From assembly GCA_963693055.1 (NCBI GenBank), contig OY843751.1, positions 1,718,252-1,782,251 on the forward strand: a DNA stretch of 64,000 nt, in the 5' to 3' direction. The notes beneath the pieces are model-generated. The model was not told the DNA's origin. It saw only the letters and a program-made list of their open reading frames with translations, and did no database searches. Positions 6,082 through 22,774 of the stretch are shown piece by piece. A program made the position numbers and the translations under genes. The stretch comes from a bacterium. Lineage in GTDB: Bacteria; Zhuqueibacterota; Zhuqueibacteria; Residuimicrobiales; Krinioviventaceae. Numbering within the stretch: position 1 is the first letter of the stretch; each line of letters opens with the position of its first letter.

Positions 6082-7461
6082 TTATGATTTAACCAGTTCG
6101 AATTTTGCCGTAAAATGACGCAGGAACGGAGCCTGCTCGGTTATTTTTACTCCACGTATATTTTCTTTGGTGTCATTAACCTCCAGAATAGATTCCACAA
6201 CATAATCGATATGGCTTTGGGTATATACCCGACGCGGAATAGCGAGCCGCACCAGCTCCATAGGGGCGGGGAGTTCTGCTCCGGTTACCGGATCTTTGCG
6301 CGCAAACATGACTGAACCGATCTCGACCGTACGAATTCCCGCGGCAAGATACAACTCGATAGACAGTGCTTGTCCCGGATACTGCTCTACAGGTATGTGC
6401 GGTAGCATGGTTTTGGCATCGATATAGATTGCGTGTCCACCCGGTGGTTGTACAATGGGCACGCCGTAATCCGAGATATGCCTGCCCAGATACTGGGTGG
6501 AGGCAATACGATAGCGAAGGTAATCCTCATTCAGAATCTCTTTGAGCCCTATGGCTATGGCTTCCAGGTCACGGCCCGCGAGTCCGCCATAGGTTGGAAA
6601 TCCCTCGGTGAGGATGAGCAAGTCGCTTTCCTGGCGAGCCAGGTTATCGTCGTTAGTGCAAAGGAAACCACCTATGTTCACCAGCGCATCTTTTTTAGCG
6701 GACATGGTACAGCCGTCCGCATACGAGAACATTTCGTGCACAATCTCTTTGATGGTTTTGTTGGCGTATCCTGCTTCACGTTTTTTGATAAACCAGGCAT
6801 TCTCGGCAAAGCGGCAGGCGTCGAAATAAAAAGGGATTTTATGTTTGTGTGCAATGGCTGCCACAGAGCGTATGTTGGCCATTGATACGGGTTGTCCGCC
6901 ACCGGAATTGTTAGTGATGGTGAGCATGATGAGCGGAACGCGATCTACGCCCACCTCGTTGATGGTTTTGAGCAGTGCATCGGTATCCATATCGCCTTTA
7001 AAGGGCAGAGGATTTGCAGGATCGAGCGCTTCGGGTTTGAGTAAATCGCGGGCCTCGGCGCCTTGAAATTCAACATTGGCGCGGGTGGTGTCGAAATGGG
7101 TATTGTTGGGCACCACATCGCCTTTTTTACACAGGATAGAAAAGAGGATGCGCTCAGCCGCGCGGCCCTGGTGAGTGGGAATGACATGGTCGAATCCGAA
7201 TATATCCTGCACCGTCTCTTGCATGTGGTACCAGCTTTTACTGCAGGCATATGCTTCGTCTCCGCGCATAATACCCGCCCACTGCTCTGAGCTCATGGCG
7301 GACGTGCCACTGTCGGTGAGCAGGTCAATCAATACATCGTCACTATTGATCTGGAACAGATTATAGCCTGCTTTTTTCAGGATTTTTTCGCGCTCTTTGC
7401 GGGTGGTCATGCGGATAGGTTCAACGGATTTGATTTTAAACGGTTCTATGATAACGGTCAT
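6082..7461 (-). CDS. tnaA: Tryptophanase / tyrosine phenol-lyase family beta-eliminating lyase (PLP-dependent)
   Basis: 459 aa, alignable along its length to E. coli TnaA as recalled (DLLTDSGT, PTHQGR, SMSAKKD PLP-lysine region, FTAKF C-terminus); AGGAG RBS. Tryptophanase versus tyrosine phenol-lyase cannot be separated by eye. Confidence 0.9.
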   Translation of the reverse strand: MTVIIEPFKIKSVEPIRMTTRKEREKILKKAGYNLFQINSDDVLIDLLTDSGTSAMSSEQWAGIMRGDEAYACSKSWYHMQETVQDIFGFDHVIPTHQGRAAERILFSILCKKGDVVPNNTHFDTTRANVEFQGAEARDLLKPEALDPANPLPFKGDMDTDALLKTINEVGVDRVPLIMLTITNNSGGGQPVSMANIRSVAAIAHKHKIPFYFDACRFAENAWFIKKREAGYANKTIKEIVHEMFSYADGCTMSAKKDALVNIGGFLCTNDDNLARQESDLLILTEGFPTYGGLAGRDLEAIAIGLKEILNEDYLRYRIASTQYLGRHISDYGVPIVQPPGGHAIYIDAKTMLPHIPVEQYPGQALSIELYLAAGIRTVEIGSVMFARKDPVTGAELPAPMELVRLAIPRRVYTQSHIDYVVESILEVNDTKENIRGVKITEQAPFLRHFTAKFELVKS

Positions 7462-7720: not shown

Positions 7721-8056
7721 ATGAAATACAATCATATCGGCATTCCGACAAGTGAGCGTTTTGAAGATGAAATTGAAATTCCACATTTGAAAATTACAGT
7801 AAGCGATCACAAAAACAATCCATTCGGAATACAATGGATGCGTTACCGGGACGATGCTCCGTATCCGGATGTCGTTAAATCCATTCCCCATGTGGCATTT
7901 GAAGTCGATGATCTTGATATTGCTTTAAAAGATCAGGAAATTATTATATCACCCAATAGTCCCACACCCGGGGTTATTGTCGCTATGATTTTGGTAAATG
8001 GTGCACCTGTAGAGTTGATGCAAATAAACAGAGCTGTTTACAGGGATGAAATTTAA
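7721..8056 (+). CDS. Small hypothetical protein, possibly glyoxalase/VOC-like
   Basis: 111-aa ORF divergent from tnaA; weak resemblance to VOC-fold proteins (HIGI...PHVAFEVDDLD). Confidence 0.45.
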   Translation: MKYNHIGIPTSERFEDEIEIPHLKITVSDHKNNPFGIQWMRYRDDAPYPDVVKSIPHVAFEVDDLDIALKDQEIIISPNSPTPGVIVAMILVNGAPVELMQINRAVYRDEI

Positions 8057-8138
8057 TGATGGAAATAAACTTGTAACCGATGTGAATTATAATAGTGAGT
8101 AAACCCCGGATGAGATGTCCGGGATTTATATAAAACAA

Positions 8139-9593
8139 TTATTTCATTTCTGCCCGTAAAACATAGCCATATTCTGAAATGCGTTTTGCCGGGAATTGGA
8201 TAGTAAGACCGTCTTTTGTCTGTTGCCAATCTATTTTTTGCTCACTTCCAAGCATGGAAATATTTTTAATTTCAGGAGCATAATCCATTTGATCAGATAG
8301 GGATTTGATGGTTACTGTACCATCATCCGGGCAGACCAGGGCCATAATGTACAAGTTGTTGTCTTTTTGGGTAAACCAGAAATCCTGTTCCTGAAAATCT
8401 GACCTGAATCCATCACGTTTACGTTGAGTCGTACTTTTTATTTCAATTTTTGTGGGACCTTCATGTGTTACATGCTAGGAATGTCTTCCATAAATGGCTT
8501 CGCTGTTGATGGACATCCATTTGCCAATTTCGTGCAACTGGTCGATACTTTCCTGGGGTATGGAACCATCACCTTTGGGACCAATATTGAGCCAATAATT
8601 CCCGCCCTTTCTGGCAATAGCCATAATCCAGTAAATCAATTCTTTGGTGGACTTCCAATCCACATCATAACTTTTATATCCCCAGATATTGTTCAGGGTA
8701 CCGGGAGCTTCCCAGTACACGTCACCGCCTTCTCTGTTATCCGGGATTTTATTGTCACCGGTGACCCAATAATCGCCCCAATCATTACCTACTAGGTTGT
8801 TGACAAGGCAGTTGGGTTGAATATCGTAAATCAGTTTGTAAAATTCAAAACTCTGTTCTTGTGTCATATGATTCGCCATATCGTACCAAATCTCGATGAG
8901 GTTAGGAAGCGTATTTAACAGTTCTACCATTTGCGGTTTGGATTTGACCTCGAGATATTCCTCGAAAGAAACCGGAGAGGGGTCCCACATGTTTGCAGGC
9001 CAGTCTGCCTATTTGCTCGTATCGTCCGGATTTTCCTTTAAATAATTGAGCACACCCGCATTGCCGCCATCCATCTAATCGGTAGAATGTGAATAATAAA
9101 TACCAAAGCGCAGTCCTTGTTTTTCACATTCCTGTGAGAGGGCTTTGATAGGATCGATGTCAAAGGGGGTACTGTCAATAATATCGTAATCCGTTACTTT
9201 TGAATCGTACATTGCAAATCCATCATGGTGCTTGGGCATTGCTATTTCATATCGCATACCTGCGTCTTTTGCCAGTTTGACCCAGGCTTTTGCATCAAAT
9301 TTAACCGGATTGAACTGGCTGCATAATTGTTTGTACTCGTCCCTGGGTATTTACGCGTGGTAAAATATCCATTCACCCAATCCCGGGATCTTTTCTCCCT
9401 GCCAAATACTGGCAGGCATGGAATAGACACCCCAGTGACTAAACATGCTAAATTTATAATCATTAAATTGTTCCAGTGCCTGGCTTTTTGTATCGTGCAT
9501 TGCCTGCCAATCCTGCAATAAAGAATCATCGGCATAAACAAAAGTGCATACAAGAAAGAGTACAAGTATTGCAAATCTTTTAATCATCAACAT
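8139..9593 (-). pseudogene. GH29 alpha-L-fucosidase interrupted by four in-frame stop codons, no frameshift
   Basis: ORF fragments 9351..9593, 9075..9257, 8475..8990, 8139..8354 share one frame; read-through gives a continuous GH29-like protein (signal peptide, [36 protein letters not shown]). Stops at 9351-9353 TAA, 9075-9077 TAG, 9009-9011 TAG, 8475-8477 TAG. Confidence 0.8.
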
Positions 9594-9867: not shown

Positions 9868-12201
9868 ATGTTTAAAAGAATCAGCTTGTTAATCTTGATC
9901 ATTAGCTGCAGTCTTTTAGCGACAACCATTGATGACAAAGTATTGTTTTTGGATGGGGATGGAGATTATCTTCACCTACCGCAACCTATTGTCAATTCCA
10001 GTGCATTTACAATCGAGGGATATGCATATATGAATGGATCCGGAGGAGGTGTCTGGAGCCAGAATCCGTTTTTCCAACAGAGAAGCCCATATCTGGGGGA
10101 TGTTGATAGATCAACTTTGATTTTTGTAACAGAAAACCAACATGGTGAAATCGGTATGGGGGTGGCGTCCATTGGTTATTCTTATCAAGATTATCAGTAT
10201 AATCCCAGAGCCGATTACGGTGAGTGGCACCATTATGCATATGTAATTACCGGAGACAATGTTTGTATTTATCTAGATGGAGTAAAAATATTAGAAGATG
10301 TATGCAATCAACATGGTGATTATACATCAGAGATATATTTCACTGATATTGGTCGTCATACTATGGTTGATACTGATTATGGATTTTTTAATGGAATGCT
10401 AAATGAAATGCGAATTTGGAACAGGGAACTGAGCCAAAGTGAGATCCAGGAATTGAATTTGGGCCCGATTGATCTGGATACATTTGATTCATCTGAAAAA
10501 GGTCTTGTTGCTTATTGGCGTTTTGATGAAATTAAATATCTGGGCACGGAAGATGGTATTGTTCGGAGAATTGCGGATTTATCCGGAAATAACAATACAG
10601 GTACGCTTGTAGATGATGCTGTTATTATTGGTAATACCGAATCGATTAGTGCGAATAAAATCAAAGTAGAATCTGTAATATACAATGAAAATGATGTTGC
10701 GTTTGTTCCAATAAATGTTGATTTTTCTGAAATAACAGGATTTAACACAATCACTTTTAGTATTGAAAAGTCTGACAAGCTGGAACTACTTCAGATCATT
10801 CCTAATTCTCAACTTTTATCCATACCCAATACTGATATTACTTTTGAAAGTGTTGAAAATTCAACGGTGATAACCGTACAATGTAGTGAGCCCATTTTAC
10901 CAAAAGGTCTGCTTGTATGGTTGAAAATGTCTGTTCTTGATAATAACAGTGATTTTATCAATGTTAACCTTGATGCCGCAGAGGTTGGGGGACTTGGTGA
11001 AGCTCCATTGAAAATTTCAGGAGCTGTAGTAAAATCAACTGTAACCAAATCCGGAGACGTATATTACGATGGCATTGTTGATATGAATGATTGCAAAACA
11101 ATACTTGAACATGTATTGGGAATGTATGAAATTGATCCGGATTTGTTTAATGCTGCAGATGTTAATCAGGATGGTTCTATAACATCTCTGGATGCCAGTA
11201 TTATTCTACAATATATTAATGGACTTATTGATAACCTACCGGTGCCTTATACAACCAATATGTACCCCAGCTCAGGTTCTATCAATTTAGGAGATCCCAT
11301 CCCAGGAGCCGGTCAACTTGTTTCGATTCCAATTGTTATGAATCAAGGGGATAATATCTTTTCATTGTTTTGTGAAATAAGCTTTGATAGTGAGAATTAC
11401 ACCTTTAATGGATTTAATATGATTTACAATATCGTTCAATTATATTCACGTGTATCTGACGGTTGTTTAAAATGGAGTTTTGCACTGGCTGAACCTCTTT
11501 CAGGAAATGCTATTTTGGGTTATATGCAATTCACAAAAAATAATGTTGATGCCGGTAGTGCTATACTTGCAAGTGATATTTGCTTGAATGAAATCAATAG
11601 TACCGTCCCGGTAGAAATGTCCTCCTTTACGGCTTATAATGAGGATGGTTGTGTTTTACTCCAGTGGACAACAAAGACAGAAACCAATAATTTGGGATTC
11701 CATTTATATCGGTCAAGTACCTCAGAAGGTCCATGGACAAAAATTAATTCATCTATAATCCCAGGTAATTGCACTTCGTTAATAGAAAATAAATATACAT
11801 TTGTAGACACTGATATTGAAAATTTTTCAAAAGTTTATTATAAAATAGAGCAATTGGATACGGATGGCAGTACAGTTTCTTTTGGCCCCGTGGAACTGGA
11901 AGTTGGAGATGGTACTGTACCTAGTCGTTTTGCATTAAAACAAAATTATCCGAATCCATTTAATTCAAATACAATTATAGAATATAATGTACCCAGATCC
12001 GCTTATGTTAATGTTTCCATTTTTAATACAAGGGGACAATTGGTTAGGGAACTTTTAAATGCCAATCAATCAGCAGGGAATCATGATCTCGTGTGGCATG
12101 GAACTGATCAATTTGGCAATGTGGTCTCTTCCGGTGTTTATTTGGTAAGAATGACCGCGGGGAATTATAATAATACATTAAAAATGCTTTATGTGAAATA
12201 A
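9868..12201 (+). CDS. Secreted T9SS cargo protein with LamG/concanavalin-like domain, dockerin-like repeats and C-terminal T9SS sorting domain
   Basis: 777 aa; signal peptide; LNEMRIWNRELSQSEI (LamG-like); DVNQDGSITSLDASIILQYINGL (dockerin-like); C-terminal LKQNYPNPFNSNTIIEYNVP...GVYLVRM (T9SS type A sorting domain). Confidence 0.8.
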   Translation: MFKRISLLILIISCSLLATTIDDKVLFLDGDGDYLHLPQPIVNSSAFTIEGYAYMNGSGGGVWSQNPFFQQRSPYLGDVDRSTLIFVTENQHGEIGMGVASIGYSYQDYQYNPRADYGEWHHYAYVITGDNVCIYLDGVKILEDVCNQHGDYTSEIYFTDIGRHTMVDTDYGFFNGMLNEMRIWNRELSQSEIQELNLGPIDLDTFDSSEKGLVAYWRFDEIKYLGTEDGIVRRIADLSGNNNTGTLVDDAVIIGNTESISANKIKVESVIYNENDVAFVPINVDFSEITGFNTITFSIEKSDKLELLQIIPNSQLLSIPNTDITFESVENSTVITVQCSEPILPKGLLVWLKMSVLDNNSDFINVNLDAAEVGGLGEAPLKISGAVVKSTVTKSGDVYYDGIVDMNDCKTILEHVLGMYEIDPDLFNAADVNQDGSITSLDASIILQYINGLIDNLPVPYTTNMYPSSGSINLGDPIPGAGQLVSIPIVMNQGDNIFSLFCEISFDSENYTFNGFNMIYNIVQLYSRVSDGCLKWSFALAEPLSGNAILGYMQFTKNNVDAGSAILASDICLNEINSTVPVEMSSFTAYNEDGCVLLQWTTKTETNNLGFHLYRSSTSEGPWTKINSSIIPGNCTSLIENKYTFVDTDIENFSKVYYKIEQLDTDGSTVSFGPVELEVGDGTVPSRFALKQNYPNPFNSNTIIEYNVPRSAYVNVSIFNTRGQLVRELLNANQSAGNHDLVWHGTDQFGNVVSSGVYLVRMTAGNYNNTLKMLYVK

Positions 12202-12415: not shown

Positions 12416-13135
12416 TTATTCATTCAACAAATTTGCAATTTCTTTACTTATTTCATCTGCCAGTTTGTTATAGCCATCCTGATTATAGTGTACATTACCC
12501 TTGGATGCACTATACTTTTCAAGCTCTGGTTCAATCAGGTTATACAAGTCAATAACCGGGATATTGTTTTCTTGCATGATCTTTTTTGCAATATTGTTTC
12601 TATCAATTACAACCTGGTTTTTTTTTGGATCTAACTTTAGATCAGGTTCATCTGACGGGAAGGGAGTTGTCTAGGAATAGACCAGTTTGCAATTTCTGGA
12701 TTTTTCAGATTTAAGAAATTTAACAAATTTTCTCAAGCTCTTTTCATATTGGCTATTGTCAAGATGCTAGCCATGAAGTCCATTATTAAAATGTATTAAT
12801 ACATGGTTTTAATTTGCCATAGCAATTTTTGATTCAATCATCAATGATGGATCTGCAATGGATCTGGATGTGGCGTATCGATCGCAATTGCCTTGCGGCA
12901 GCTTTTCTGAAACTGCTTTATAGTATCCTCTTGAAATAGAATCCCCAATAAACAATACACGGGGCTTTTCTGTATCGGGTTCATTTGCCCACCAGAAATC
13001 GCACCACTCGATTTTTTCACGAATTACTTGTGCTTTCGTGCAACCTGCTATAATAAAACCCGTTAATAATATAAAATAAAGTGTTTTTGAAGAAATTATC
13101 CTGTTCCATTGAAACCCGGGCATCGCGTTTTTCAT
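12416..13135 (-). pseudogene. SGNH/GDSL hydrolase (lipoprotein-type signal) interrupted by three in-frame stop codons, no frameshift
   Basis: N-terminal fragment 12809..13135 has lipobox and RVLFIGDSISRGY block I; reading on in the same frame through TAA (12809-12811), TAG (12767-12769) and TAG (12671-12673) gives ...HVLIHFNNGLHG*HLDN...KLVYS*TTPFP...NVHYNQDGYNKLADEI..., ending at 12416. Confidence 0.75.
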
Positions 13136-13529
13136 TACTTATTCCTTTTAATTGTTAATTTTTCAGTATGTTTAAAAAGGAATAAAATAATTTGATAAAA
13201 ATCAATATAATATTTCATTGAAAAATACAGATCCATTTCAATCAAAATATATATCATTGCATTTTTCCGGTATTTGTGATATACTTACTAGTCACATGAG
13301 ATAATATATGTAAAGGGGGGGTAAATTAATCAAAGACAATATTACTGCATTCTCTGATAAGGTAGTGTAAGGATGGAAATTTATAAATATTAATGCGGGA
13401 AAATTATGATCTGTCTATAAATATTCCGGTTTATACGTTTGAGGCATGAAATATTTTTTAATCAATATCAATGTTTTTAAAAAGATTTAAGAGTAAGTTG
13501 GAATAAAAGATAATAATTTAAGGTACAAT

Positions 13530-14033
13530 GTGACAAAAATTTTTATGTATATATGGATTTTTCTCCTATTAGTAAATTTTATACTTTTATTTGTAAAGAT
13601 GTTTTCTATTTCTGAAACCCATGTTAAATTTGGAATAGGAATTAAATTTCTTTTTTTACATTTTTTTGTTATCATGTCTTTAGGATATTATTTTTCTGTC
13701 ATTGAACCATTTTTTTTGAATGGAAAAGAACCTAATCTGAACGCTACTATTCTGTTGCTATTTTCCATTTTGGGAGTTTATGTTGGATTTAGCTTTCGAT
13801 TTCAATGTAAGGGAAAGTATTATATATGGTTCAACGGCCTATATATTCGAAAAGTATCTTCCGATACCATCAAATATATTATTTTCTATGTGAAAAAGGG
13901 ACAAACACAAAAAATTAAGTTTGTTAGAGATGGAAAGAATATTACTTTTCGATTTGGGAATTATTTTGAATATGTTATTTATAAATTTGCACATGAAAAC
14001 AAAATTCATATAAAAAGAAAAAAATATAGTTGA
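13530..14033 (+). CDS. Orphan hypothetical membrane protein in a very AT-rich island
   Basis: 167-aa ORF with two N-terminal hydrophobic helices and a Lys-rich C-terminal part; strongly AT-rich compared with flanks; followed by its own terminator; start uncertain (GTG 13530 or ATG about 13545). Confidence 0.4.
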   Translation: MTKIFMYIWIFLLLVNFILLFVKMFSISETHVKFGIGIKFLFLHFFVIMSLGYYFSVIEPFFLNGKEPNLNATILLLFSILGVYVGFSFRFQCKGKYYIWFNGLYIRKVSSDTIKYIIFYVKKGQTQKIKFVRDGKNITFRFGNYFEYVIYKFAHENKIHIKRKKYS

Positions 14034-14045
14034 ATTTTAGTATGT

Positions 14046-14073
14046 ATAGATGGCGATTTGTCCATCTTTTTTA
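14046..14073 (+). terminator. Rho-independent terminator after the AT-rich orphan ORF
   Basis: agatgg-cgatttgt-ccatct hairpin followed by a T-run. Confidence 0.55.
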
Positions 14074-14172
14074 GGAAGTGTAAAGATTTTTGTGTAAATC
14101 ATGAACAAGGGTTCAATAACCCGTAGGGTTATTGAATTTCGATCGCTGATTGATTTGCACACACTTTTCCAA

Positions 14173-15505
14173 GGGACTGTAAATTCGCTTGTGTTTTAAA
14201 AACAAATATTACATTTTATTAAATACAGGAGAATTTACCAATGAAACTTACACCTGAAATTATTAAACAACTTGAAAAAGATTTTGAAAATTGCAAGACA
14301 GCAGACGATCTGCTGGGCAAAAATGGTCTGGTCAAGAATTTGATTAAGGGCATATCAGACCAAATTATGGAAGCTGAAATGACCCAGCACTTGGGCTATG
14401 AGAGACATTCTTCAGAAGGTGATAACAGTGGCAATAGTAGAAACGGTCACAGCAGCAAAACAGTGAAGACAGATTTTGGTGAAATTGACATCAAAATCCC
14501 CCGTGATCGGAATGGAGAATTTGACCCGGTACTTGTCAAAAAGCACCAGCGTGATCTGGGCAAAATAGATGAAATTATCGTTGCCTTATATGCCAAAGGT
14601 CTGAGTACAAGAGACATCAAAGACCACCTGGAAACACTTTACGGCCTGGACGCTTCCCCAACATTTATTTCCAATGTTACCGAACGGGTACGCGAGCTTG
14701 TCGTTGAATGGCAGTCAAGACCGTTGGATAGCGTTTATCCTATTGTTTATTTGGATGCTATCCACTATAAGATACGTGACGAAGGGCGTATTATAAACAA
14801 GGCCGCCTATACTGTACTGGGAATCAATGGTGAAGGCTTTAAGGATTTACTTGGTATTTGGATCGACCAGTCCGAGGGCGCCAATTTCTGGCTGTCTGTT
14901 TTAACCGATATACGAAACCGTGGGGTTGAAGATATTCTGATTGCATGCGTAGATGGGCTGAAAGGCTTTCCGGATGCTATTGCCAGCATTTTTCCCGATA
15001 CTGAAGTCCAGCTTTGTATCATCCATCAAATCCGTAACTCGCTTCGTTATGTTGCATCAAAACATCAAAAAGAATTTATCAAAGATCTGAAGCTGGTTTA
15101 TCAAAGCACAACTAAAGAAAACGCTGAACTGCAACTGGATCGCCTTGAACAAAAATGGGGGGTCAAATATCCCATTGTTATCAATTCCTGGAGAAAAAAC
15201 TGGGACAACCTGTCCAACTATTTTAAATATCCCGAAGAAATTCGGCGAATGATCTATACCACAAATAGTGTAGAGGCTCTGCACCGACAGCTTCGCAAAG
15301 TCACTAAAACCAAATCTCTGTTCCCCCACGATGATGCGTTGAAAAAAATGCTGTTTCTGGCCTACAGGGATATTGCTAAAAAATGGTCGCAGCCCATCAG
15401 AAACTGGGCCTTTGTTGTTTCTCAATTTTCTATTATATTTAAAGACAGGATGAAAATCCAAATATAGCACTACTATTCATTTACACAAAAAAGTTTACAG
15501 TCTCC
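14173..15505 (+). mobile_element. IS256-family insertion sequence, about 1.33 kb, with imperfect terminal inverted repeats
   Basis: Left end gggactgtaaattcgcttgtgt (14173-14194) matches the reverse complement of the right end (15483-15505, ggagactgtaaacttttttgtgt); single transposase ORF inside. Boundaries are approximate to a few bp; no clear target-site duplication seen. Confidence 0.7.
14241..15467 (+). CDS. IS256-family (mutator-type) transposase
   Basis: 408 aa with the typical IS256 transposase layout (YLDAIHYKIR, CVDGLKGFPDAI, CIIHQIRNS); RBS aggag upstream. Confidence 0.9.
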   Translation: MKLTPEIIKQLEKDFENCKTADDLLGKNGLVKNLIKGISDQIMEAEMTQHLGYERHSSEGDNSGNSRNGHSSKTVKTDFGEIDIKIPRDRNGEFDPVLVKKHQRDLGKIDEIIVALYAKGLSTRDIKDHLETLYGLDASPTFISNVTERVRELVVEWQSRPLDSVYPIVYLDAIHYKIRDEGRIINKAAYTVLGINGEGFKDLLGIWIDQSEGANFWLSVLTDIRNRGVEDILIACVDGLKGFPDAIASIFPDTEVQLCIIHQIRNSLRYVASKHQKEFIKDLKLVYQSTTKENAELQLDRLEQKWGVKYPIVINSWRKNWDNLSNYFKYPEEIRRMIYTTNSVEALHRQLRKVTKTKSLFPHDDALKKMLFLAYRDIAKKWSQPIRNWAFVVSQFSIIFKDRMKIQI

Positions 15506-15633
15506 TTTTTTATTTTTCATTAATTAGTTATATTTGATTTTTGTTTGATTATAGATTTATTCTCATTCTCAATCCTGAATAATATTGTATTTTCAGGCGT
15601 TTGTGATATACTATTTAAAAGTATTGAGGAAAG

Positions 15634-20130: not shown

Positions 20131-20847
20131 CTAGTTTTTACCGCCTTTGCCTCTTGAAGGTGTTGAATCATCAGAGCGTCCAAAACCTACTGTGGTATTT
20201 GTTGCTCCACGTCCCAGACAATCTTCCGGGCGGACCCAATCAGAGTCCTGACCATTGGGGATACCGTCACTGTCATCATCCGGTGCATTGTCGTTGATTC
20301 CATCACCGTCTTCGTCAACAAATGCATGCATGCTGCGACCTTTGCCATTGCCAAAACCGCTTTTGCCGCCAGCTGCTACGTAATCAGCATCCTGACCATT
20401 TGGGATTCCATCACCATCAGCATCAGGTGCATTGTCATTATATCCGTCACCATCTTCGTCTACAAAACTATTTGCGCCTTGTTTCTGACCATTTCCTGCG
20501 GCACTACCCTGACCAGCTTGTGCTACATAATCTTCATCCATGCCATTGGGGATTCCATCGCCATCTGCATCCGGTGCATTGTCGTTATAGCCGTCACCAT
20601 CTTCGTCTACAAAGCCTTCACCGGAAATACCCTGACCATAGCCGGAACCTGTACGGACATAATCTTCATCCATACCATTGGGAATTCCATCGCCATCAGC
20701 GTCCGGGGCATTGTCATTGTAGCCATCACCATTGAGGTCCACAAATTTTACACCATGTTCAGCGGTTTGTGAAAATACAGAGGTACTTGCAAATGCTGTC
20801 ATTGCCAAAGCAAGAAGCAGAACGGATAATGTTTTTGATGTTTTCAT
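20131..20847 (-). CDS. Secreted protein built of four tandem thrombospondin type 3-like calcium-binding repeats
   Basis: Signal peptide, then four copies of FVDEDGDGYNDNAPDADGDGIPNG(M/Q)D(E/A)DYV separated by Gly-rich linkers. Confidence 0.7.
   Translation of the reverse strand: MKTSKTLSVLLLALAMTAFASTSVFSQTAEHGVKFVDLNGDGYNDNAPDADGDGIPNGMDEDYVRTGSGYGQGISGEGFVDEDGDGYNDNAPDADGDGIPNGMDEDYVAQAGQGSAAGNGQKQGANSFVDEDGDGYNDNAPDADGDGIPNGQDADYVAAGGKSGFGNGKGRSMHAFVDEDGDGINDNAPDDDSDGIPNGQDSDWVRPEDCLGRGATNTTVGFGRSDDSTPSRGKGGKN
20255..20770. repeat. Four tandem DNA repeats of about 130-150 bp encoding the calcium-binding repeat units
   Basis: Near-identical blocks (ggattccatcrccatcwgcatcmggtgcattgtcrttrtakccgtcaccatcttcgtctacaaa) recur at roughly 20260, 20400, 20550 and 20680. 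Confidence 0.7.
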
Positions 20848-21952: not shown

Positions 21953-21955
21953 AAA

Positions 21956-22330
21956 ATGGCTCAGGAGCTAATTAAAAAAAGTGAGGAGATGATGTCAATA
22001 CCAACTCCGGGACAACCGGTTAGAGGATCAAAAACCGGTATCCCTATAATGGCACTTTTTGATTTACTTGGCCGGCCCTGGGCCTTGGGAGTCATCTGGC
22101 AGTTGCAAAATGGTCCCTTTACATTCAGGGAACTCCAGGAAAGATGTGAATCCATTTCTCCTACAATATTAAACAGCAGGATCAAAGATTTACGTAATGC
22201 TGATATTGTAGAACGAACACTGGAAGGATATCAACTAACGGAACGTGGTAAAGAGCTGATTGCTATTATTCGTCCTTTTGGAAAGTGGTCATGGAAATGG
22301 GCAAGAGAAGTTTTTGATTATTCTGAATAA
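21956..22330 (+). CDS. HxlR-family winged-helix transcriptional regulator
   Basis: LLGRPWALGVIWQL...GPFTFRELQE...SPTILNSRIKDL signature; 4 bp after the upstream gene. Confidence 0.8.
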   Translation: MAQELIKKSEEMMSIPTPGQPVRGSKTGIPIMALFDLLGRPWALGVIWQLQNGPFTFRELQERCESISPTILNSRIKDLRNADIVERTLEGYQLTERGKELIAIIRPFGKWSWKWAREVFDYSE

Positions 22331-22339
22331 CATAAAAAT

Positions 22340-22774
22340 TTGGAGAACACAATGGATATTAAAAGTTGTATTGATTTTACAAACGAAAATAAAGTTTGTT
22401 ATTTGGCAACCACTGAAAATGGTGATCCACGGGTAAGGGCTTTGGGATTTTGGTTTGCGGATGAAACCGGTTTTTATTTTCAGACCGGTGCTATGAAATC
22501 ATTGTACAAACAATTATTGAGCAATCCGCAGGTAGAAGCATGTTTTTACAAGGCTGTAAGCATGACCGGAAAAATGTTAAGAATTGCAGGGGAAATTGAG
22601 TTTATGGAAGATCTGGAATTGAAGGAAAGAGTCATGCAAGAGAGACCCTTTTTAAAGAATTTTGGTCTCACTGCGCATGATCCTAATCTGATTGTTTTTC
22701 GGTTGGAACATGGCCATGCACATTTCTGGACAATGGAAGATAATTTAAAGCCCAAACAAATGATTGAATTTTAG
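22340..22774 (+). CDS. Pyridoxamine 5'-phosphate oxidase-like FMN-binding split-barrel protein
   Basis: 144 aa; general PNPOx-like pattern; operonic with the HxlR gene. Confidence 0.65.
   Translation: MENTMDIKSCIDFTNENKVCYLATTENGDPRVRALGFWFADETGFYFQTGAMKSLYKQLLSNPQVEACFYKAVSMTGKMLRIAGEIEFMEDLELKERVMQERPFLKNFGLTAHDPNLIVFRLEHGHAHFWTMEDNLKPKQMIEF

Follow-up and report, generated by a model that had tools for sequence, protein, structure and literature searches.

Bacterial unitary pseudogenes, the kind that NCBI PGAP reports as 'internal stop', combine an intact syntenic ortholog with single-base nonsense changes, an excess of damaging replacements, AT drift and intact flanks, and the GH29 alpha-L-fucosidase locus described here resembles them in all these respects. 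It lies in a window of 64 kb (the whole stretch of DNA that was analysed), about 3 kb from a second relic, a GDSL/SGNH esterase gene. Four plus three stops in neighbouring genes without a frameshift set this pair apart from typical internal-stop pseudogenes, at the less common end of their range, and the esterase relic differs from decaying unitary pseudogenes in lacking missense decay. Other known systems also come to mind. TAG at a conserved Trp is a hallmark of the UAG>UGG A-to-I editing of fungal 'pseudogenes' and of the TGG>TAG hypermutation of retroviruses by APOBEC3G-type enzymes; the present genes are unlike both: neither an editing motif nor a significant context bias was found, their other stops come from Gln, Tyr and Leu by other substitutions, and the GH29 gene is degenerate beyond its stops. 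In-frame TAG and TAA codons in collinear frames free of frameshifts likewise recall stop codon reassignment or suppression (phage TAG>Gln under code 15, pyrrolysine at TAG, ochre suppressors), but here two genes only are affected, four residues are involved, the same codons terminate the neighbours and there is no suppressor tRNA or Pyl machinery in the window. Among solved GH29 structures the closest is PDB 9s0x (E 1.5e-157); others are AlfC (6o18), BT2970 (2wvv) and the enzymes of Bifidobacterium asteroides (8p1s) and Thermotoga maritima (1hl8). As in these, the catalytic domain and the C-terminal beta-sandwich are full length and the HH, YYS, GEW and W-x-D motifs are kept; in contrast to them, the frame is broken four times, the Arg of NSR has become Leu, and replacements affect seven more positions that do not vary among close homologs.

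Translated in one frame, the minus strand from 9593 to 8139 gives 484 codons interrupted by four in-frame stops and by nothing else. The read-through product matches Pfam Alpha_L_fucos (PF01120, E 7.6e-68, 229.9 bits where the gathering cut-off is 25.2) and Fucosidase_C (PF16757, E 1.7e-12, 48.1 bits), and by origin this is a gene for a secreted enzyme. The only close relative in a scan of GTDB species representatives, MAG CAXXMD01, carries an intact ortholog of 482 aa (P0001, L001:10001-11449) with 91% aa identity to the window copy, and the alignment to it, as well as to a 76% paralog (P0002), is gapless at both the protein and the DNA level. The initial annotation had described a GH29 gene interrupted by in-frame stops only and had proposed a search for an intact orthologous copy in related genomes; the four stops and the absence of any gap against either homolog bear out the description, and the search was run and yielded P0001, intact and syntenic. 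Its extent of 8139-9593 is sound as to the frame, less so as to the start: the ATG at 9587 lines up with the start of the ortholog and has better spacing from an AGGAGA, and is probably to be preferred over 9593. The native stop codon is the TAA at 8139-8141. All features are collected in Table 1.

Table 1. Location of the two broken genes, their lesions and the neighbouring features within the 64-kb window.
Feature	Position	Strand	Remarks
GC-rich hairpin CCCGGA...TCCGGG	8105..8123	.	directly 3' of the GH29 stop; stem arms conserved in L001
GH29 alpha-L-fucosidase pseudogene	8139..9593	-	Pfam PF01120 + PF16757; gapless alignment to intact syntenic ortholog
GH29 in-frame TAG from TGG (Trp W173)	9075..9077	-	G>A at 9076; invariant in 14 homologs; motif YYSHSTDW
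GH29 in-frame TAG from TGG (Trp W195)	9009..9011	-	G>A at 9010; W in every homolog having the column
GH29 in-frame TAG from TGG (Trp W373)	8475..8477	-	G>A at 8476; invariant Trp after AIYG; ancestral CCTGG
GH29 in-frame TAA from CAA (Gln)	9351..9353	-	C>T at base 9353; variable Q/R/K column
Codons AAC CTA (Asn-Leu) for the invariant Ser-Arg of NSRVGN	8790..8795	-	S266N, R267L
777-aa secreted LamG/dockerin protein, T9SS C-terminal sorting domain, intact	9868..12201	+	between the two pseudogenes; Pfam; internal control
Second pseudogene, GDSL/SGNH esterase	12416..13135	-	3 in-frame stops, no indel; Pfam Lipase_GDSL_2
GDSL in-frame TAA from TAT (Tyr)	12809..12811	-	Tyr invariant in 14 homologs
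GDSL in-frame TAG from TGG	12767..12769	-	invariant Trp
GDSL in-frame TAG from TTG	12671..12673	-	invariant Leu
IS256/Mutator-family IS	14079..15499	+	transposase 14241-15467; inside 2.3-kb insertion (~13286-15590)

Each of the four GH29 stops is a single transition away from the corresponding P0001 codon (CAA>TAA once, TGG>TAG three times), so that the origin of the TAGs from TGG by G>A, earlier only presumed, can be read directly from the ortholog. The stops at 9075 and 8475 do sit at conserved Trp positions as had been claimed, although the count of two was too low, W195 being the third. The Asp just before the TAG at 9075, in HSTD, was mistaken for the nucleophile: the true one, located 66 residues downstream, is the Asp of W-x-D (here EIWYD); in AlfC this is D200 of W198-x-D200 (PMC7718225).

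Damage to the GH29 gene goes well beyond the stops. There are 17 derived amino acid changes in the window copy against 3 in the ortholog, and at the 173 columns invariant in 14 homologs the window copy differs at 10 and the ortholog at 0, with eight missense changes falling at such columns. By these comparisons the copy is demonstrably relaxed in its constraint and decaying, and its inactivation seems to be recent since the overall dN/dS against the ortholog is still 0.087. The nucleophile motif EIWYD is kept, aligned with WFD of 8p1s, 9rzy and 9rzx. Where all 14 homologs have the NSR motif, the window copy reads NNL. The lost R267 is probably the essential active-site Arg (AlfC R229, BT2970 R262; nucleophile + 29), an equivalence drawn from spacing and not from superposition, and the D+29 spacing of the NSR Arg is confirmed on the 8p1s alignment. 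The R229A mutant of AlfC is inactive (PMC7718225). Read-through would not rescue the GH29 protein, because this probable essential Arg is gone (NSR>NNL), and the copy is likely dead even if translated through its stops.

The GDSL gene presents a different picture. It aligns without gaps in tblastn to L001:6441-7160 (92%), where the copy is intact, and its three stops fall inside 138 nt. At 85 invariant columns no missense change was found, and the stops are the sole differences there (p ~0.002-0.004 for stops without missense, ~0.01-0.02 given the first stop). Unlike GH29, the frame looks otherwise intact, with no relaxation of constraint apparent from its sequence, and this pattern is left as a small unexplained residue.

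The surroundings of both relics are in good order. In L001/L003 the GH29 gene has the same flanks as in the window, namely a Beta_elim_lyase gene, the GDSL gene and the gene of the 777-aa LamG protein, and the LamG protein of the window has a full-length gapless ortholog match with a dN/dS of 0.13. The adjacent 459-aa gene shows 3 non-synonymous differences over 1060 non-synonymous sites (99.3% aa identity to its ortholog), and for ten further orthologs in L001 the match is free of stops and covers the full length or nearly so, which dismisses sequencing error across the window. Values of dS between adjacent genes go from 0.14 to 0.98, with a sharp identity step at 12810. Some 150 bp upstream of the GDSL gene lies the 2.3-kb insertion, which is absent from L001. 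No second GH29 or GDSL copy that could act as gene-conversion donor was seen in the window; exact-protein matches sought for three window products gave none, a 32-nt pattern across a stop had no match in metagenome contigs, and the neighbouring lyase, with a best identity of 84% in metagenomes, had no linked GH29 or GDSL gene. Of 44 intact ORFs, which cover 53.5 kb, 28 terminate with TAA, 8 with TAG and 8 with TGA, and none has an internal stop. The contrast of seven in-frame stops in the 2.2 kb of the two relics with none in these 53.5 kb marks the lesions as local and as real features of the window sequence.

The position of the stops is easily understood. They fall on conserved Trp because GC>AT transitions turn such codons into stops and the protein is rich in conserved Trp: there are 21 TGG codons in the GH29 gene, and if the spectrum is biased to GC>AT, Trp accounts for ~38% of the nonsense routes, with nonsense representing 0.067-0.095 of non-synonymous mutations. 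Polarised nucleotide changes in GH29 amount to 47 on the window branch and 24 on the ortholog branch; GC>AT transitions make up 22 of the 47, against a single one on the ortholog branch. The unpolarised excess of GC>AT in GH29 (66:45) is matched by intact neighbours such as Fer4 (33:21) and GFA (24:15) and hence reflects genome-wide AT drift. A Dcm-type 5-methylcytosine hot spot, considered for W373 (CCTGG>CCTAG), was rejected, given that inner-C transitions affect 5 of 32 CCWGG sites, against a background expectation of 5.6. Trp losses over both genes all gave TAG (4/4, p = 0.06).

How unusual stops without indels are depends on the indel rate. Some 30-40 neutral substitutions in GH29 fit both the eight invariant-column missense hits and the four stops, and P(>=4 stops) is then 0.08-0.28. 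With the local indel:substitution ratio of 0.065, estimated from spacers, the probability of no indel in GH29 is ~0.11-0.17, and at a ratio of 0.1 it is ~0.03-0.05. Vibrio mutation-accumulation lines have a ratio nearer 0.2 (PMC5854121), at which it would be improbable (<1e-3) for both genes to be free of indels; for bacterial pseudogenes no figure of indels per substitution is given in PMC6054270. Stops without indels are therefore mildly unusual, or weakly improbable, under neutral decay. The initial annotation had regarded the lack of frameshifts as an anomaly for a pseudogene with four nonsense codons; with P(no indel) at ~0.03-0.17, a conserved-Trp pattern that is to be expected from the Trp content and the mutational bias, and a copy that is decaying by the counts given above, this claim is not supported. 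Over the two genes nonsense makes up 7 of ~30 lineage-specific replacements. It is somewhat over-represented (P ~0.004-0.04 unconditioned), but the excess is weak when one initial hit per gene is taken as given (P ~0.04-0.19).

We consider it quite probable that the GH29 gene is a unitary pseudogene, a recent loss of function followed by decay through ordinary point mutation. Selection on the gene would have been lost and decay would have set in, with inactivation falling within roughly the most recent 10% of the interval after the split from the nearest sequenced relative. After that, the ~30-40 neutral substitutions may have accumulated, among them the one that removed the probable essential Arg, and small indels would simply not have occurred so far. 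The neighbouring GDSL/SGNH esterase would have been inactivated likewise, by three nonsense codons and no indel. All seven lesions can be seen as ordinary pseudogene mutations, with no need for recoding or other unusual biology. As two neighbouring genes are broken alike, the lineage has probably given up a small glycan-trimming function encoded here.

An alternative that we regard as unlikely, if the least unlikely of those considered, is adaptive loss, in which inactivation of fucosidase and esterase was favoured and independent nonsense alleles were recombined onto one haplotype, giving more stops than neutral decay. Both genes encode functionally related secreted enzymes and flank a single intact gene, nonsense exceeds missense, most clearly in the GDSL gene, and the spread of dS and the identity step suggest that recombination with relatives is active in this region. 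Under such a process, however, frameshift alleles should also rise and there are none, the many damaging missense changes of GH29 are explained by simple relaxed selection, and the statistical excess of nonsense is weak given the first hit per gene.

Clearly less probable is that base-calling, polishing or strain-mixture errors produced the stops in an assembly or consensus of genes that are intact in the organism, even if 'pseudogenes' with internal stops are often assembly artefacts (PMC11017572). Errors of this kind are blind to the reading frame and no enrichment for stops would be expected from them, nor would they leave the neighbours so clean, with the 459-aa gene nearly identical to its counterpart and no stop in any other ortholog compared. 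The coherent decay of GH29, with its AT drift and eight invariant missense changes, would need ~40 errors within 1.4 kb. A motif common to the seven stop sites, of the type left by methylation or base-calling, was looked for and none was seen, and the mutation rate of CCWGG sites is that of the background. The stops are probably present in the organism and not just in the assembly.

Slightly further down in credibility, and in our opinion very improbable, comes the idea that the stops are tolerated, with an amber/ochre-reading suppressor tRNA, leaky read-through or UAG>UGG A-to-I editing of the mRNA preserving some function in at least the esterase and perhaps in both genes. If true, it would explain the maintained-looking esterase, the absence of TGA, the four of five TAGs at Trp positions and the unshifted frames: the seven stops are all TAG or TAA, the pair read by an ochre-type suppressor, the GDSL frame looks under purifying selection apart from its stops, and neither gene has a frameshift. 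On the other side, GH29 has lost family-invariant residues, the probable essential Arg included, and would be dead even if translated. The residues aligned to the stops are inconsistent, TAG standing for W four times and for L once, and TAA for Q and Y. The genetic code is standard, and an alternative code or recoding was rejected with two genes only affected, four different residues involved and TAG or TAA ending 36 of the 44 intact ORFs, while the other genes carry no in-frame stops. Neither a tRNA nor any Rfam family was found in the 64 kb. The edited A of bacterial TadA lies in the context TACG. This context is absent at the TAG stops, where G follows A in every case.

Least credible of all is a mutational burst, caused by error-prone repair of a patch of DNA or by a strand-specific cytosine deaminase, which might be an APOBEC3G-like GG>AG enzyme or an interbacterial deaminase toxin. 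A burst would suit the four TGG>TAG changes beside no TGG>TGA, the GG context of 7 of the 14 G>A changes that arose in the window copy of GH29 (31% background), the lineage imbalance of GC>AT transitions and the clustering of the GDSL stops. Against it, the GG enrichment does not reach significance (p = 0.10), intact neighbours such as Fer4 and GFA match the GC>AT excess, the LamG gene between the relics has no asymmetry, and the seven stops include two T>A transversions and one C>T change on the opposite strand.

With recent loss and ordinary decay as the preferred reading, both loci should be annotated as pseudogenes instead of a series of short ORFs, and neither the corresponding fucosidase nor the esterase activity should be attributed to the strain. 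The case may also serve as a calibration example, as TAG at conserved Trp without frameshifts is to be expected in a young pseudogene of a Trp-rich enzyme under AT-biased mutation. Should the residual anomaly be real (three stops in an otherwise undamaged esterase gene, and no TGA), it would point to nonsense suppression or selected loss in an uncultivated glycan degrader. Elsewhere in the window, the same-frame ORFs at 21953-22771, which might have been taken for another broken gene, are actually two separate genes. The hairpin adjacent to the GH29 relic is a probable terminator common to this gene and a convergent 111-aa ORF.

Read through its stops, the GH29 alpha-L-fucosidase gene translates as 484 codons in a single frame, interrupted by nothing other than four in-frame stops, and the product matches both the GH29 catalytic domain PF01120 (E 7.6e-68) and the fucosidase C-terminal domain PF16757 full length in Pfam, the nearest solved structure being 9s0x (E 1.5e-157). 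The initial annotation had thus located and described correctly a gene broken solely by stops. An intact orthologous copy in a related genome, which it had suggested looking for, does exist: a protein search recovered P0001 (482 aa, 91% identity to the read-through product), located on a 390-kb contig (L001/L003) of the MAG CAXXMD01 in the same gene neighborhood, i.e., HxlR, flavodoxin/Fer4, M28 peptidase, AraC, GFA, altronate-dehydratase-like, GDSL esterase, a 777-aa LamG/dockerin/T9SS protein, GH29, tryptophanase-like lyase and Mut7-C. The second match, P0002 (76% identity), is a paralog on another contig of the same MAG (3.64 Mb; L002/L004), where it sits within a large CAZyme cluster. The MAG carries two GH29 genes of the same subfamily; if the genome of the window also retains a P0002-like paralog, redundancy could explain the loss. 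DNA identity between the window and L001, its only close comparator in the collections searched, is 85–91%, and they are related species rather than one strain. The nearest named GH29 relatives are MAGs of candidate division KSB1, Phycisphaerae, and Bacteroidales.

Features of the two relics and their surroundings (window coordinates)
Feature	Position	Strand	Detail
GH29 relic	9593..8139	-	
In-frame stop, GH29	TAA 9351-9353	-	CAA>TAA (Gln) vs ortholog
In-frame stop, GH29	TAG 9075-9077	-	TGG>TAG (Trp) vs ortholog
In-frame stop, GH29	TAG 9009-9011	-	TGG>TAG (Trp) vs ortholog
In-frame stop, GH29	TAG 8475-8477	-	TGG>TAG (Trp) vs ortholog
GH29 missense at invariant columns			G49S, G62S, S266N, R267L, T303I, L334W, T370R, W421C
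GDSL/SGNH esterase relic	13135..12416	-	
In-frame stop, esterase	TAA 12809-12811	-	TAT>TAA, Y109
In-frame stop, esterase	TAG 12767-12769	-	TGG>TAG, W123
In-frame stop, esterase	TAG 12671-12673	-	TTG>TAG, L155
2.3-kb insertion	about 13286-15590		absent from L001; starts about 150 bp upstream of esterase relic
167-aa ORF, unknown	13530-14033	+	inside 2.3-kb insertion
IS256/Mutator-family IS	14079-15499		transposase intact, 14241-15467 (+); 21-nt imperfect terminal inverted repeats
Beta_elim_lyase (tryptophanase-like)	6082-7461	-	
Segment lacking homology to L001	7594-8100		
111-aa ORF	7721-8056	+	no Pfam match
238-aa conserved hypothetical gene	20131-20847	-	

The DNA alignment of the GH29 relic with L001 is gap-free across the entire coding region, and each stop is a single-base change from the ortholog codon, with TGG opposite each TAG, as had been proposed for two of them. 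The placement of stops at conserved Trp also stands, although not the count of two: in an alignment with 14 homologs two of the Trp columns never vary and the third holds Trp in every sequence that has it, which makes three. The Gln column holds Q, R, or K. The first TAG had been placed after the putative nucleophile Asp, which proved mistaken, since the nucleophile lies in EIWYD, 66 residues downstream of HSTDW. The W-F-D of solved GH29 enzymes aligns on this motif; in AlfC, the nucleophile is D200 (W198-x-D200) and the Tyr in YYS corresponds to Y131 (PMC7718225).

It is evident how the window copy has decayed in comparison to its ortholog. Polarization with 13 outgroups assigns 17 derived amino-acid changes to the window copy and 3 to the ortholog. 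Of the 173 columns that do not vary among the 14 other sequences, the window copy deviates at 10 (8 missense changes and two of the stops) and the ortholog at none. Polarizable nucleotide changes are 47 and 24, respectively, with GC>AT transitions accounting for 22 of the former and one of the latter. Still, dN/dS against L001 is 0.087 (dS 0.50), so the gene stayed under normal constraint through most of the time since the split and was probably lost only recently. It is very probably a dead gene and not one read through its stops, i.e., a young pseudogene, real and ordinary, of a kind already known. One of the lost residues is R267 of the invariant NSR motif. It follows the nucleophile by 29 residues, as do R227 in 8p1s and R229 in AlfC, and changing the latter to Ala (R229A) leaves AlfC with no detectable activity (PMC7718225). 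Judged by spacing and invariance rather than superposition, R267 is probably the equivalent of R229, in which case the protein would be inactive even with all stops read through.

A systematic comparison with L001 revealed that a second gene on this strand, encoding a GDSL/SGNH esterase and located 3 kb from the GH29 relic, likewise has in-frame stops as its sole interruptions, without any indel relative to L001. Its three stops fall at residues invariant in 14 homologs and are its sole deviations at 85 invariant columns, none of which carries a missense change, so that apart from the stops it resembles a functional gene. This has p of about 0.002–0.004 under a neutral model, or about 0.01–0.02 by hand calculation with the same parameters once the first, inactivating stop is given. 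The LamG gene between the relics is intact (dN/dS 0.13). Identity to L001 drops from about 98% (13285-12811) to about 92% from base 12810, exactly at the first esterase stop, and the dS of neighboring orthologous genes (window 1-22100) ranges from 0.14 to 0.98, which suggests a mosaic formed by recombination with related lineages. There is no TGA among the seven stops, all four Trp losses being to TAG (p = 0.06). The esterase pattern, the absence of TGA and the identity step are post hoc oddities at the 1–10% level, unexplained, and not evidence for a mechanism.

Is a pseudogene with stops and no frameshifts anomalous, as the initial annotation argued? Considering all single-base changes of an ancestral-like GH29 sequence, nonsense makes up 6.7% of non-synonymous mutations if the spectrum is uniform and 9.5% if it is biased toward GC>AT, in which case Trp (21 TGG codons) provides 38% of nonsense routes; stops at conserved Trp are therefore expected and carry no special signal. 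The eight missense changes at invariant columns and four stops are compatible with about 30–40 neutral substitutions, with a probability of 0.08–0.28 for four or more stops. The local indel:substitution ratio is 8/124 (0.065) in the four alignable spacers of the locus, where homopolymer runs are 2–3.5 times more numerous than in the relics, and gives a probability of no indel in GH29 of 0.11–0.17 (0.025–0.05 at a ratio of 0.1). Wild-type Vibrio mutation-accumulation lines show 0.16–0.27, mostly in simple repeats (PMC5854121), and such a ratio, applied undiluted, would make the absence of indels improbable. The argument has some force without being compelling, and the pattern is only mildly abnormal.

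A plausible, if not very likely, variant of recent gene death would be adaptive loss, with several nonsense alleles joined by recombination. There is a small probability that a local assembly or sequence artefact created the stops, as can happen with internal-stop pseudogenes (PMC11017572), but frame-blind errors would not enrich stops and the decay of GH29 is coherent. These points, together with clean neighbors, exclude window-wide sequencing error; the adjoining lyase gene differs from its L001 counterpart at 3 of 1060 non-synonymous sites. Stops tolerated by suppression or UAG>UGG editing are very improbable, being contradicted in GH29 by the lost invariant residues, although for the esterase this reading keeps a small probability; TACG, the context of TadA-type editing, is absent at the stops. 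Deaminase-type hypermutation is not supported either, since the GC>AT excess of GH29 (66:45) is equalled in intact neighbors, the LamG gene between the relics has no such excess, enrichment of GG context falls short of significance, and T>A changes produced two of the seven stops. Nor is a Dcm-type hot spot (5 of 32 CCWGG sites, 5.6 expected). An altered genetic code is rejected: the 44 intact window ORFs (53.5 kb; terminators TAA 28, TAG 8, TGA 8) have no internal stops, nine other L001 orthologs align from end to end with neither gap nor stop (for a tenth, Mut7-C, the match covers 245 of 248 residues), and the seven stops align to four residues (W, L, Q, Y). Neither tRNA genes nor Rfam families were found in the 64-kb window.

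The source of the window is a polysaccharide degrader that has a type IX secretion system, and the DNA itself is ordinary chromosomal sequence, including intact genes for two GH28, a GH35/42-like enzyme, aconitase, a PKD protein, a PAS/GAF histidine kinase, and a division/cell-wall cluster with PBP and FtsZ. Across the window, CTAG occurs about six times less often than expected (38 observed against 224) and CCWGG twice as often (109 against 55); CTAG is newly formed at three of the stops. No other gene of the region is nearly as constrained as the lyase (99.3% amino-acid identity to its L001 ortholog, dN/dS 0.007, dS 0.43). In the segment lacking homology, L001 has a different ORF of 187 aa, also with no Pfam match. 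The 238-aa gene shows off-diagonal blastn matches every 130–150 nt or so, which indicates internal tandem repeats.
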